Assembly: GCA_951406725.2 (NCBI GenBank)
Contig: OX597821.1
Location: 68,200,001 to 68,264,000 of the forward strand
Direction of reading: 5' to 3'
DNA length: 64,000 nucleotides
Source: Octopus vulgaris
Lineage: Eukaryota
The position numbers and the translations under genes are program-made. The notes under the pieces were generated by a model. That model did not search any database. It was not told where the DNA came from and was given only the letters and a program-made list of their open reading frames with translations. This document shows, one piece after another, positions 10,731 through 49,519 of this stretch; the first letter of the stretch is position 1, and each line of letters begins with the position of its first letter.

Positions 10731-10821
10731 TTTCAGTACAATTGTTTCATACGAAGAACAGCTTTATTAAAAGCTGCAAATATTGCAGCAAATACAAGTG
10801 TCCCGTACTCATCAGCCAAAA
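10731..10821 (-). ncRNA. Type I hammerhead ribozyme
   Basis: Minus strand reads ttttgg CTGATGA gtacg...cgtat GAAA caattg TA ctgaaa. The core is intact, helix II pairs, helix III is the palindrome CAATTG and the cleavage triplet is GUA. Confidence 0.8.
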
Positions 10822-10883
10822 CACATATGAGTTTTCCAAACATCCTGGGGGTGAGGCTACACTCATGAAGTATCGAAGAGAGT

Positions 10884-11354
10884 TCTATAAAAAGCAAATT
10901 TAGATTGTAAGCAGACTTCCAAAGTTCTCTAATGATGCACAGTTTTATAAAAGGTTTTAAAAAAGCTTGTTAGCTTCACAGAAAAGGTAAATCCATCTAT
11001 AATAATGTAGGTGTAATTTCCGGAGATATGAGGAGATATTTCATACTCAGAGACGATGAATTTATCCATAATAAAGTGGGTATAATTCCCTGATATATGA
11101 GAAGATGCCGATCACACTTCTGTTCATTTCACAAAACTACTATGCTGGAATCATAATGGCTAAAAGAATTTAGTAGAGCAGAAAAACCGTCCAAATAGGG
11201 CATTATGGGACAACTGAGAGGAGAGAGGTGTAAGTACACAACCTACACAACCTTTTCTGTGAAGCTAACAAGCTTTTTTAAAACCTTTTATAAAACTGTG
11301 CATCATTAGAGAACTTTGGAAGTCTGCTTACAATCTAAATTTGCTTTTTATAGA
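10884..11354. repeat. Apparently perfect 105-bp inverted repeat with ~260-bp spacer
   Basis: 10884-10988 is the reverse complement of 11250-11354. Confidence 0.95.
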
Positions 11355-12810
11355 GGAGGCTACAGCTACTGCAATGTCCTGATGCTACCTAACTTCTGCA
11401 AGGAGAAGCTTTGTAATAAATGTTTTTCCTGTCCCTCCAGGAGCATCGAGGAAGAAGATTCGTCCCTCGCGTTGGCGTACACTGTTAAGAATATTTCTGT
11501 AGGCCTGCAGCTGGTCCGCAAGTAATTTAGGCTCATTTTCAACAATGTACTTTGAAAGCGCTTGAGTGTCGTAGGTTGTTTCACGAATGACAGCAGTGGG
11601 AAGGCTATTTGACCCTGACCTGAATGCTTGTGGCAGGCCATGTGTCGACAGTTATTTTCCACCCAGTTTAGCAATTCTGTCTTCAATGTCAATGAGTGTT
11701 TTGTTATAGATTTCATTGCTGATACCCTCCATGTCAGGATAGAGCAGTTGAGCTTGGCGCTGAAAGTCTTCAGCCAGGTTGTCTCTATATTTGAGTCATA
11801 GAGTGGCCGGATCACACAGTTCGCATGCCTGTAGTAATACTGCAAATAGTGCCCTGAGACTTTTAGGTGATTGTGATAAAGCAGCCTCTCCTAAAGTTGC
11901 ATCCCATAGTGCACCATCTTCTAACAGACCTTGTCGATAACAGGCTTCTCTGTATGTTGTGCAGACATGTCCATGAACGGTTTTTAGGGCCTGGAAAGAC
12001 GTTGGCCCTCTAACCTCATGCAGTAGTAGACGAAGGTAGAAGCACCCTTGTTGAGTGGGATACACTATGTATACTCGCCCAAGGCAAATGTGAAACTTAA
12101 TGCCAGGGTATCCATGAACATTTGGCCCTGCTTTCCGTGGTGCCCATTTTTTTCCATTCCAAGTGTAGTACGATGGAATCTGTGGATACAGCAAGGTTTG
12201 AGCGAATGGATCCACTTGACAAAGCTTGAAGAATGCAGTGAGTGTGCTATCCCTTGGTTCTTCTGCCAACAGAGAAGCATTAGCATCGGTGAATTACACT
12301 CTTTGACCATTTTCCAGGTGCACTGCAAGCTGTTGAATGGCGGGGTGTCATCGGTGAATTGGAAAGCCAAAGATACTCCAGAAAGCATCGTTGCTACTTA
12401 TGTACTGTCCCACCTGATAATGCGTCACCTCATCCTGGCAGTATTCTTGTTGAAGTCCAAACATTGCAACGTCAGAACCCTTGTTTACATATTTGCAAAC
12501 GTACTTGATGGATTTAACGGAGTTGCAAAACTCAACGTTGATGTGGGCATTGAAAGTCTTTGACAGGAGTGGACAGTATGGAACAATCCATCTATTATCA
12601 ATATCGTGCTGTGAAACCTCCGTCTTCTGGTTTTCTGCGTCTGTATGATGGATACCCATCAGCACCTGTCTGAGTTTCTTGTAGGAACCTCCTGGGAAAT
12701 CTTTTTGAACATATGCTGTCCTTCAAGCATGGTGAGTTTATGTTGAATCCACGCCCACATGGACCATGTACCATATTTGCTTTAACTATTTCGTATAGTT
12801 CTTTGAAAAT
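11352..12810 (-). pseudogene. Helitron Rep/PIF1-helicase (RepHel) pseudogene
   Basis: Motifs MVHGPCG..SPC..CSKRFP..GYPSYRRR, IDNRWIVPY..AHINVE..SIKYVCKYVNKG (Rep catalytic tyrosines), FYLRLLL..V.GPTSF and Walker A FFLDAPGGTGKTF at ~11420-11460. Frameshifts and stops are present. Confidence 0.93.
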
Positions 12811-13496
12811 ATTGTCAATTTCCCCAAACAGAGACACAATTCAATTTATAAACAATAACCAAAGCCCCTTCTCCGAAAGGGGAGGGTTACGGTTTACAAT
12901 TATTTAACAAATGCAACACAACAACGTTTCCCTGACGAGGAACCAACAAACGTGATTACAATAGTCAAACAGTAATAATAATAACAACAAACCTTTTTAA
13001 TTTATTCCCATTTATGTGAAACCACTTATTCAAGTTCAAGTCATTGATGCAATTTTATACGAATTGCTAATACACACACATATAATAAGGGTGAAAAATT
13101 GAATATTAATTTGATTAATATGAACTGAAAACCAGTGGTGTAGCATATAAGACCATAGCGGATCTTCTTCTAGCAAAATGGATGACCATTGTTAATGGTT
13201 CATCCCTGTTATATAATACTTTCACTTTAATAGTTTCAGTATTAAAGTGAATGTCTGCATTACAAAAGAGAGGTGTTTTTGTTTCACTTTTAACACGTAA
13301 TACTGAAATAGTGGAGAAAATATGATATTGCTGTGGGGTCGCCCTAGGGAAAAAGTTAAAATGACACTCCCCGGACCTTAAGTAAGGCATGTGTAAAATT
13401 TGAATGAAATTGGTTGTGTAGTTCTCAGGTTCTAGGGAAACACACACACAGACAGACAGACAGACATACACGCATTCTCAGTTTTATATATATAGA
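11352..13496 (-). mobile_element. Helitron, 3'-truncated and internally deleted
   Basis: The 5' terminus TCtatatatataaaactgagaatg is at 13496 on the minus strand. Rep/helicase coding remnants span 11352-12810. Confidence 0.92.
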
Positions 13497-47789: not shown

Positions 47790-48172
47790 CTTTACTCTAT
47801 TGCTCTTTTACTTGTTTTAGTCATGTGACCGTGGCCATGCTGGAGCACCGCCTTCAGTCGAGCAAATCGTCCCCAGGACTTATTCTTTGTAAGTCTAGTA
47901 CTTATTCTATCGGCCTCTTGTGCCGAACCGGTAAGTTACGGGGACGTAAACACACCAGCATCAGTTGTCAAGCGATGGTGGGGGGACAAATACAGACATA
48001 CAGTCACATGCACACACATACACATATAGATATACATATATACGACGGGCTTCTTTCAGTTTCCGTCTACCAAATCCACTCACAAGGCTTTGATCGGCCC
48101 GAGGCTATAGTAGAAGACACTTGCCCAAGGTAGCACGCAATGGGACTGAACCCGGAAGCATATGGTTCGTAA
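47790..48172 (-). mobile_element. SINE family B copy
   Basis: Reverse complement of 42973-43372. Confidence 0.88.
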
Positions 48173-48479
48173 GCATGCATTTATTTGTAATTAATCATTC
48201 ACATACACACTCACACTTGCTTATATCTGCTTGTTTGCATGTGTGTGTATTTGTGTGTGTTGGTATATATATATGTGTGTGTTTGTGTGTGTGTGTGTGT
48301 GTGTGTGTGTGTGTGTGTGTGTGTGTGTGTGTGTGTGTGTGTGTACGTGTGTATCTATTATCTTTTGTCTTTTACTTGTTTCAATCATTAGGGTCGGGCC
48401 ATGCTAGGGCAAGACTGAAATGCATTAAAAATTAATAACATAATGTGTGTATGCATATATATAGTAAATAAAAAAAAAG

Positions 48480-48660
48480 AAGATGAACAAACACAAAAAC
48501 AACTACGCGAGGACGTGGTACCAGTAAAGTATTAGCAGACCCACAGGGAAGGAAAGAAAGATGGTTTAACGTTTCGAGTAACGCTCTTCTTCAGCAACAG
48601 AGGAAAGTCCAATAGAAAGGAAGACGGAGGAAGAAAATCGCCAACGATTCACATGTGGTT
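48480..48660 (-). mobile_element. Minimal-hammerhead repeat copy
   Basis: Minus strand reads gttg CTGAAGA a gag-cgtta-ctc GAAA cgtt aaac. Confidence 0.65.
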
Positions 48661-49468
48661 ACAGTATATATGTATGTATATATATATATATATATATATA
48701 TATATATATATATATATATATATATATATATAAAACAAAATGGGACAACAAAACATCCAGTTAGACGATACAAAGAAACCAAGGATGGGTCATTCGGGGT
48801 TTTCTTTCCTAAGTCCAGTACCAGATTATCTTCGCAATTTCGGCTGATTAAACTCGAGATTGCTCCAATCTGGCTAGACCCAAAGAAAAACTAAACTAAG
48901 AGCACTAGATTCCTTGGAAGAAAGCAGCGAATGTATACGAAAACAAAGACAGAAAAAACGGAAACTATTACACAAATACAGAAAAAATAATAACAAGACA
49001 TAACAACAGGTGCTTTTCGTCTAAAGACGATTTATATCTATATATATATATATATATATATATATATATATATATATATATATATAGAGAGAGAGAGAGA
49101 GAGAGAGAGAGAGAGAGAGAGAGAGAGAGAAAGAGAGATCTTACAAATGTAAGCACTGGCAGAAACATAACTTTAGCTCATATAAGTGATTTATACCAGT
49201 CTGTATAGTTTGAACATTTAGTTCACCTTGCACTTTACTTCAATAAAGAAATCTACTTCCAAGCCTTTGAATATTTTTTGAACCAACATATCCCTATATT
49301 TCTCTTTTATTTGTTCTCTACTTATTATTTCTTTATCCCTTCTCTTTCTCTGGTCTACCTTTGGCGTCGGATCTACTAACGGTTATAAAATACTTAATAA
49401 CGCTCTGGTATCATTTATGCAGTCATCAAAATTGTTATACTGTCTTGTTGTTGAGGTGGGTTCTCTTT

Positions 49469-49519
49469 CTTTCCTGATGAGAAGATTACATTATTTTACA
49501 CCGAAACATATGTCGAAAG
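49469..49519 (+). ncRNA. Type I hammerhead ribozyme
   Basis: ctttc CTGATGA g...c GAAA catatg TC gaaag. Helix I pairs and can be extended, helix III is the palindrome CATATG, and helix II is degenerate. Confidence 0.7.

Follow-up and report, generated by a model that had tools for sequence, protein, structure and literature searches.

Hammerhead motifs with palindromic helix III in an octopus genome segment: putative 3′ ends of Hydra-motif Penelope-like elements and a retrozyme-like unit

What kind of element places five type I hammerhead motifs, each with a different self-complementary helix III, in a single 64-kb stretch of octopus DNA (the window, meaning the whole stretch analysed), and what might the palindromes be for? 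The original prediction named five sites, and a both-strand descriptor scan of the window (CUGANGA, helix II, GAAA, helix III, UH and a helix I with at least 5 of 6 pairs) returned exactly those five, with the helix III words as predicted (Table 1). All five have the type I core and three helices, with the ends joined in helix I. The comparison with shuffled sequence that had been proposed as a check gave no similar hit rate: block-wise dinucleotide shuffles (n = 60) contained 0.27 sites on average (maximum 2), and a perfect palindromic helix III of at least 6 nt, present four times in the window, averaged 0.017 per shuffle (maximum 1). Taken by itself, GAAACNNNNGTH gives no significant signal (9 in the window versus 5.4 in shuffled sequence, with 10 of 100 shuffles reaching 9), so the signal needs the whole fold. 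A first descriptor version that capped helix II too tightly found no sites. An Rfam scan of the window yielded no hammerhead family among the 150 of 420 matches listed, in which microsatellite matches dominate, and a genome search with RF00163 gave 6 matches among 73 scored, none of them inside the window. Two decayed copies had also been proposed. The one at 23835(−) was confirmed, at 83–87% identity to hammerhead-bearing relatives; at 63783, no upstream core was seen by eye and no match was found among the family loci compared, leaving that candidate unconfirmed.

Table 1. Putative hammerhead and element features located in the 64-kb window.
Feature	Position	Strand	Details
Family A 5′-truncated 3′ end (UTR/pLTR), Hydra-type PLE, ends at (TA)n	10580..11247	−	90–92% to ORF-bearing copy L110
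Hammerhead A, type I	10731..10821	−	Core from 10815; helix II 60 nt; helix III CAATTG
Inverted 5′ piece of family A insertion (PLE-type inversion)	11250..11354	+	Family alignment
Decayed hammerhead, sixth family	23793..23937	−	Core CTGAAGG; helix III TGATCG; UA at 23836-23835
Family B truncated 3′ region, Hydra-type, microsatellite-rich UTR	24007..26814	+	86–91% to ORF-bearing copies L109, L118; 5′ limit approximate, inside a TA run
Hammerhead B, type I	26677..26727	+	Helix II 12 nt; 14-nt helix III CAGTACTAGTCCTG with family-fixed mismatch
Family C 5′-truncated 3′ UTR/pLTR, young Hydra-type element, between (TA)n runs	40365..41002	−	99% to full-length L107
Hammerhead C, type I	40578..40670	−	Core from 40660; helix II 55 nt; helix III CACGTG
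Family D inverted arm (unit positions 316-480), also ends at (TA)n	42105..42269	−	Alignment to unit
Family D direct arm (unit positions 139-583), ends at (TA)n	42271..42715	+	583-nt ORF-less unit
Hammerhead D, type I	42332..42422	+	Core from 42338; helix II 60 nt; helix III CGTACG
Family E older 5′-truncated 3′ end, Hydra-type, sister lineage of family C	49132..49556	+	Family alignments
Hammerhead E, type I	49469..49519	+	Helix III CATATG; helix II shortened

Each of the five motifs ends a different repeat family (A to E), and each family stops at (TA)n. The helix III word is kept in 18 of 20 loci for A, 20 of 20 for C and 18 of 20 for D, and the predicted cuts follow UA at 10737, UA at 40587 and UC at 42416, respectively. 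Hammerhead B carries a U-U where its helix II starts. Its sequence is the same in all of the 20 family loci compared (the stretch 26530-26815 is 100% identical to other loci), so its helix III mismatch is not decay. The self-complementarity of helix III described in the original prediction is conserved. Hammerhead E is likely damaged, since the copy at 49469 has lost 35 nt of helix II in a deletion private to it (22 nt, versus 57 nt in its relatives).

The original prediction described the carriers as unrelated and ORF-less, and for families A, B, C and E neither term fits. Most single copies are short stubs, and other copies carry a single ORF with RT followed by a C-terminal GIY-YIG domain: it is stop-free in family C (an 899-aa RT+GIY-YIG frame between two direct pLTRs in L107) and in family B (L118; the family frame is 680 aa), and broken in the A and E copies, where RT+EN are frameshifted (L110–L112 for A; coding upstream in L095, L103 and L104/L113 for E). 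The proteins of these four families are homologous, with 37–52% identity to that of family C, and a 64-nt alignment of families C and E that spans the ribozyme region stands at 73%. "Unrelated" was thus an overstatement, and "ORF-less" survives only for family D, among the loci examined. The broader assignment to Penelope-like or retrozyme-type hammerheads held up well, as four PLE ends and one retrozyme-like unit.

As references for placing the ORFs we used the Hydra-clade diagnostics of Craig et al. 2021 (PMC8557442), as far as that source was drawn on here. Shared with that clade are the GIY-YIG domain C-terminal to the RT, RWK-like and DKT motifs (RWK/DKT in A, RWR/DKT in B and RWL/DKT in C; the N-terminus of E was not recovered), CxxC/CxH around a conserved E and N (in B, C and E; A has CxxC, with CxH not seen in its broken copies), and (TA)n targeting, pLTRs, inversions and a 3′ type I hammerhead. 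The CxCX5C linker of the clade is present in A and B and absent from C and E. Judged by these motifs, the elements at 10731, 26677, 40578 and 49469 are 5′-truncated ends of autonomous PLEs of Hydra-clade character. Pfam and PDB sequence searches with the ORFs gave no matches; the ORFs were identified from homologues and from motifs recognised by eye. By eye the family proteins resemble Hydra-1_Obim; the Hydra placement comes from motifs rather than from an RT tree. Of 19 loci per family, 9 in A, 3 in B, 13 in C and 15 in E have Hydra-like coding within 1.5 kb, counted on either strand at the best-scoring loci and hence biased to long copies; such coding lies upstream on the same strand in only 3 of 60 unselected genome matches, so the Hydra link is established for a few families rather than for the whole population.

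Family D is of a different kind. The longest stop-free stretch in its unit is 69 aa, wrap-around (circularly permuted) copies occur in 16 of 19 other loci, and in loci that reach the start of the unit, the unit's own 3′ end lies upstream. Of its 65 3′ ends, 31 fall at one site and 21 at a second, and one locus (L117) holds ten tandem units with intact hammerhead motifs. The unit has a GC content of 36% and a fold z of −5.4 to −6.7, versus −1.6 to +0.2 for the A, C and E ends, with two-sided changes in 12 of 141 pairs. Parts of D are matched by contigs from four runs, taken on a guess to be RNA, which are uninformative on strand, ends and circles. From its sequence organization, the 42332 family appears to be a non-LTR-retrozyme-like element that likely borrows Hydra proteins. 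One locus (L016) is a D–Hydra chimera joined at an 8-nt microhomology; together with the D family itself, it supports, at the genomic level, the proposed mobilisation of animal retrozymes by PLE proteins. What weighs against borrowing is that the chimera is 1 of 56 D loci, and that no autonomous parent with the sequence of D or of its relatives was found among the loci examined. Hydra coding is near 7 of the 56 D loci versus 5 of 60 random 10-kb stretches, with a direct join only in L016, and two related families gave 1 weak Hydra-coding match in 40 loci.

Could D instead be a Hydra pLTR that became shorter only recently and was multiplied as a satellite through unequal crossover, with no mobile RNA life of its own? 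Local tandem amplification of pLTRs has been proposed (2026 preprint, 10.64898/2026.07.22.740005), the ten-unit array exists, and D circles are known only as a prediction. We nevertheless find a satellite origin improbable: the whole genome has 860 intact D-type hammerheads, with subfamilies of ~583–602 nt scattered over the contigs listed; D insertions stop at (TA)n, do so at two fixed sites, and include permuted copies and PLE-type inversions; and the D structure is kept across subfamilies, with two related ORF-less families having its 3′ domain in common.

The motifs belong to a large, diverse and (TA)n-associated population, as the original prediction had it. The genome contains ~50,000 hammerhead pattern matches versus ~1,800 in controls, and (TA)6 lies within 350 nt downstream of 44 of 60 unselected copies, against a background of 19%. 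Sixty fixed 10-kb stretches (600 kb) held ~5 convincing 6-nt motifs. Helix II is 45–70 nt long in 35,793 matches and 10–40 nt in 14,485, and descriptors restricted to a short helix II would miss most of them. With so many matches genome-wide, the window is only mildly enriched: the genome rate predicts 1.15 pattern matches per 64 kb, and the window has four real ones plus a chance-like one at 4159. We rejected the idea of a special local cluster as weak (P ~0.03 for four matches, post hoc).

Among the first-listed genome matches, whose copies are not independent, 41 of 60 have a perfect helix III palindrome versus 1 in 16 by chance, and another 10 are G-U-compatible. Positions 3-4 make up the innermost pair, which a hairpin could not form; among the top words of 26 lineages this pair is Watson-Crick in 20 and G-U in one. 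Variants compatible with G-U pairing exceed their mirror mismatches 6–8 fold (CATGTG 2837 versus CACATG 365; CGATTG 1939 versus CAATCG 323), although a few amplified subfamilies supply these counts and the same variants could arise by A-to-G RNA editing. Strand-symmetric decay would give a ratio of ~1:1, so helix III self-pairing looks to have been selected at the RNA level. For A, C, D and E, helix III is predicted at +2.4 kcal/mol in the monomer versus −6.4 to −10.3 kcal/mol in the self-duplex. In these models two RNA copies would likely pair through their palindromes and cut as a dimer, which would fit the published dimer cleavage: PLE hammerheads with a palindromic helix III are described as cleaving weakly, and only as multimers (PMC4209133).

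That published activity is low (1 of 9 retrozyme dimers cleaved in the 2026 preprint, 10.64898/2026.07.22.740005) counts against dimer cleavage here, which is itself a prediction from sequence, and the same fact favors an alternative in which the hammerheads act as monomers, helped by proteins or a long helix II, or do not cleave at all, the palindrome being a protein-binding or RNA-pairing site. Hammerhead B is the only one predicted to fold helix III alone (−1.4 kcal/mol), a long helix II could supply tertiary contacts, and the 5′ ends of D show no significant pile-up, 4 of 51 lying within 10 nt of the predicted cut (p = 0.11). The fold of B and the lack of a pile-up also weigh against the dimer reading. 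We regard this alternative as unlikely, given that diverged families have all retained the catalytic core together with helix I and helix III, and that G-U is tolerated and A-C is not, which fits RNA pairing rather than a DNA site.

The original prediction went further and suggested that the differing palindromes form a family-specific dimerisation code. Unrelated families reuse words (CGATCG, CAATTG, CACGTG and CAGCTG are each the top word in 3 of 26 lineages) and diversity is no higher than random (17 palindromic lineages use 9 distinct words, where random use would give 10.7), so a unique family code is unsupported. A selected self/non-self code, in which families pair only among themselves and a word switch lets a new subfamily escape cross-pairing with its sisters or parasites, would account for several observations: the word is nearly fixed within each family, mixed helix III duplexes among the five are predicted to be weak (−4.4 to +0.2, versus −6.4 to −15.2 for self-pairing), sisters with a compatible helix I differ (C with CACGTG, an intermediate with CATGTG and E with CATATG), and CGATCG and CAATTG occur within one lineage. 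Besides the lack of excess diversity, however, only 16 words are available for dozens of families, G-U intermediates pair with both neighbors, tandem transcripts would give partner choice in cis with no code, and the chimeric insertion L016 joins a CGTACG element to a CATGTG element. Such a code therefore seems to us improbable. We give equally little weight to the idea that, in a population of tens of thousands of dimer-dependent hammerheads with a long helix II, whose palindromes change via G-U intermediates, switches of word would combine with helix I to keep sister Hydra subfamilies apart from one another and from a superfamily of circular retrozyme parasites reverse transcribed in the same complex; if true, it would constitute an RNA self/non-self system among retroelements, readable from genome counts. 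On heterodimer specificity, nothing relevant was found in the literature searched, which covered few subscription papers.

The explanation we favor, and hold to be quite probable, is that four of the motifs are 3′-end hammerheads of truncated Hydra-motif PLEs, that the fifth belongs to an ORF-less retrozyme-like unit likely borrowing Hydra proteins, and that the palindromes are predicted to pair for dimer cleavage. Tandem or read-through transcripts would carry two hammerheads and, because a helix III of 6 nt lacks the strength to stand as a hairpin, the two copies would form an 8-bp duplex through A15.1-NNNNNN-U16.1 and cleave slowly. Reverse transcription of the released or religated RNA would then begin at a fixed site downstream of the ribozyme, at nicked (TA)n, and would leave inversions, permuted tandems and, for the most part, short 3′ stubs. 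The palindrome would drift between words via G-U wobble intermediates that still pair, so that the diversity of words would reflect compensatory drift rather than a lookup code. With its many young families, its G-U intermediates that have become fixed and its sister pairs whose palindromes differ by a swap, the genome offers a natural mutational series, which makes the dimer model and any partner specificity testable with short RNAs and bears on the role of hammerheads in PLEs.

PLE hammerheads, their dimers and PLE-derived retrozymes are already published. With the minimal and small-palindrome PLE hammerheads, as covered in PMC4209133 and in Lunse et al. 2017 (via PMC6765202), the octopus motifs share the type I form and a weak palindromic helix III; the published small palindromes are 0–4 nt loops. 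Also shared with the PLE hammerheads of PMC4209133 are the large number of families in one genome, the prevalence of single copies derived from truncated PLEs, and the dimer model. The genome-wide G-U versus A-C asymmetry and the inner-pair conservation do not appear in the parts of Cervera and de la Pena 2014 (PMC4209133) that were compared, nor do a long helix II, 6-nt palindromes and such scale in the corresponding parts of the PLE-hammerhead and retrozyme literature.

Like the metazoan non-LTR retrozymes, as far as described in PMC7229834 and 10.64898/2026.07.22.740005, family D consists of tandem units that lack an ORF and contain a type I hammerhead, is low in GC and is extensively self-paired; those retrozymes are proposed there to derive from, and be mobilised by, PLEs. 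Its 583 nt compare with 170–400 nt in Cervera and de la Pena 2020 (PMC7229834) and 51–972 nt in Li et al. 2026 (preprint, 10.64898/2026.07.22.740005). Unlike the retrozymes in those sources, it has a PLE-type ribozyme with a long helix II, (TA)n targets, inversions and a chimera with a Hydra ORF; Hydra-linked or cephalopod retrozymes were not found in the literature searched, which included few subscription papers. For the Hydra clade, Table S2 of PMC8557442 already shows a self-complementary helix III that differs between families, and includes the octopus member Hydra-1_Obim. The Hydra hammerheads listed in that source have a short helix II (loop 2 up to ~10 nt) and a helix III of mostly 7–8 nt, whereas the elements in the octopus window often have a helix II of 45–70 nt and a perfect 6-mer helix III, are longer (the family C repeat unit is 3.6 kb), have lost the linker cysteines in C and E, and belong to a population of tens of thousands.

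All five hammerhead motifs claimed by the original prediction were found in place (see the table), and a two-strand descriptor scan of the window (68,200,001-68,264,000 of G000:C8) returned these five sites and no others; 60 local dinucleotide shuffles gave 0.27 on average. Perfect 6-nt palindromes are present in four of the five (0.017 in the same shuffles); the GAAAC..GUH piece by itself was not enriched in the window. Two decayed copies had also been proposed: that at 23835 is genuinely related to repeats that carry hammerheads, but that at 63783 was not confirmed. In the 2.8-Gb genome, the pattern CTGANGA-N(45-70)-GAAAC-NNNN-GTM has 35,793 matches (834 for a reversed-pattern control), and its N(10-40) form 14,485 (control 978). 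At the genome-wide rate, a stretch of 64 kb should hold 1.15 pattern matches; with four real ones, the window shows a mild, post hoc excess.

Hammerheads and other repeat features in the window and at related loci
Location	Strand	Feature	Details
10731	-	Family A hammerhead	helix III CAATTG
26677	+	Family B hammerhead	14-nt helix III
40578	-	Family C hammerhead	helix III CACGTG
42332	+	Family D hammerhead	helix III CGTACG
49469	+	Family E hammerhead	helix III CATATG
13539-13606	+	Short 3'-end remnant: 90% similar to sequence downstream of another hammerhead family	stops at (TA)n; no ribozyme
24007-26530		Long (TA/TG) microsatellite tract	internal to family B 3' UTR, copied along with B
22200-22430, 23040-23270		Local direct duplication, about 230 nt	(TA)n run within
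11366-12722	-	Broken frames, presumably Helitron replicase/helicase region	directly upstream of family A insertion
1753-2133, 2475-3074, 34364-34834, 57576-57983		Presumed R4/Dong-like non-LTR fragments	C-terminal endonuclease-like
19135-19584		Presumed mariner-like piece	
30397-30909		Presumed IS1595/Merlin-like piece	
L016:1256-3205		Chimeric insertion	D + endonuclease coding sequence of Hydra CATGTG subfamily
L216:2270-3048 (G000:C1 near 2,071,600) and L275-L294		Second ORF-less tandem family, about 562 nt	7-nt helix III (CAGACTG); shares D's 3' domain at 68-78%
L064:60-340 and L295-L314		Third D-related family	5-nt helix III (CGGCG); wraps past own end in L297, L300, L307; no Hydra ORF nearby

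Each of the five motifs terminates a repeat family. Searches with the family DNA gave about 1,000-3,000 first-look candidates per family, which are rough figures and not copy numbers; among the 40 candidates scored in each, identity was 91-97% for A, about 100% for B, 98-99% for C, mostly 98-100% for D and 81-92% for E. Family copies have a fixed stop downstream of the ribozyme, followed by (TA)n, and helix III is nearly constant within each family (A 18/20, B 20/20, C 20/20, D 18/20 and E 13/20 loci). Because the single mismatch in helix III of B is the same in all 20 loci, it is a family trait; the 35-nt helix II deletion in the window's E copy is private to that copy. In A, C and D, inverted arms tend to stop at a second 3' site further upstream than direct arms (query positions 408, 384 and 480, respectively), which suggests two priming sites.

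Four of the families (A, B, C and E) belong to the Penelope-like elements (PLEs). At one locus, L107, the C repeat occurs twice in direct orientation at a spacing of 3.6 kb, on either side of an 899-aa stop-free RT + GIY-YIG frame; the B protein was recovered from L109 and L118, and those of A (L110-L112) and E (L113) are both broken. Identity to the C protein is 37% for B, 42% for the A RT and 45-52% for the E pieces. Pfam and PDB sequence searches with the ORFs gave no matches; 299 homologues were found, the best 120 of them at 37-54% identity. The proteins carry RW(K/R/L), DKT, and CxxC and CxH around E and N (CxCX5C in A and B only), motifs that, with (TA)n targeting, would place all four families in the Hydra clade. 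The window copies are 3' stubs of 0.4-2.8 kb without coding sequence, which explains the earlier "ORF-less" reading: it holds for these copies, but not for their families, which have RT + GIY-YIG coding elsewhere. Among 60 unselected genome matches, (TA)6 lies within 350 nt downstream in 44 (19% background), but the 1.5 kb upstream contain Hydra-like coding on the same strand in just 3, which counts against generalising.

Family D is an ORF-less unit of 583 nt (longest stop-free stretch at most 69 aa) with ten tandem copies in locus L117. Among 19 other loci the insertion runs past the unit boundary in 16, corresponding to 14 of 17 independent sites, as expected for a circular or multimeric template. 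Of 65 listed 3' ends, from loci some of which overlap, 31 fall at unit position 480 and 21 at 583; 5' ends showed no enrichment at the predicted cut. Contigs from four presumed RNA runs cover parts of D but do not bear on strand, ends or circles. The predicted fold of D RNA is much more stable than that of shuffles (z -5.4 to -6.7), which is not so for the A, C and E ends. A rod-like predicted fold is common to nine copies from several subfamilies, and 12 of its 141 pairs show changes on both sides, although these sequences are related and the independent events few. The D-lineage pattern has 860 intact matches genome-wide (control 0), and two more ORF-less families, with odd-length helix III, are about 70% like D in the 3' domain. 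In one of 56 D loci, D is joined in the same sense to Hydra coding sequence at an 8-nt shared word, with the remainder of the Hydra end inverted alongside. We read this join as a probable template switch within one reverse-transcription complex; later recombination is the alternative.

With NNNN left free, helix III was a perfect palindrome in 41 of the 60 first-listed genome matches, G-U-compatible in 10 and neither in 9. Of 26 sequence lineages, 17 have a palindromic top word and 2 a G-U one; the top word is neither in the other 7, several of which are likely chance or decayed matches. For a 6-nt helix III, the predicted hairpin is unfavourable (+2.4 kcal/mol), whereas the two-copy duplex is at -6.4 to -10.3; the central pair, impossible in a hairpin, is yet conserved, suggesting pairing between copies. 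Mirror single changes are unequal genome-wide (CATGTG 2837 versus CACATG 365; CGATTG 1939 versus CAATCG 323), and, among the matches listed, entire subfamilies have the G-U forms whereas the A-C forms mostly occur as isolated single copies. This asymmetry, with few independent subfamily origins, fits selection on RNA pairing, although A-to-G editing could be the source of the same G-U variants. Under selection on pairing, words would change via wobble: CACGTG-CATGTG-CATATG, CGATCG-CGATTG-CAATTG and CGTACG-CGTGCG. That palindromic hammerheads would act as dimers is, at the sequence level, well supported.

The further proposal, that the palindromes form a selected family-specific code, we consider improbable. 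Weak pairing is predicted for the mixed helix III duplexes of the five, and the two sisters C and E, whose helix I strands pair across the families, have different words; a degree of discrimination is therefore physically possible. However, just 16 words are available and unrelated lineages have words in common, word diversity does not exceed the random expectation (9 versus 10.7), wobble intermediates pair both ways, and the partner would be chosen in cis within tandem transcripts; a code unique to each family finds no support. In the established double hammerhead model, helix I is likewise exchanged between copies.

In Cervera and de la Pena 2014 (PMC4209133), hammerheads of PLEs have a palindromic helix III, fall into many families per genome and cleave weakly as multimers; work on the dimers is summarised in a 2019 review. 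Craig et al. 2021 (PMC8557442) defined the Hydra clade and list its motifs; their table, in which an octopus member appears, gives short helix II and a family-specific self-complementary helix III. Animal retrozymes were defined, and PLE mobilisation proposed, by Cervera and de la Pena 2020 (PMC7229834), and a 2026 preprint (10.64898/2026.07.22.740005) derives vertebrate retrozymes from PLE terminal repeats. An octopus repeat annotation has 31 recently active Penelope-like families and, in the passages covered, no mention of ribozymes; literature searches turned up nothing more on heterodimer specificity or on cephalopod retrozymes. The window elements are of a known kind in variant form, marked by a long helix II, palindromes of 6 nt, copy numbers in the tens of thousands and a retrozyme-like passenger.
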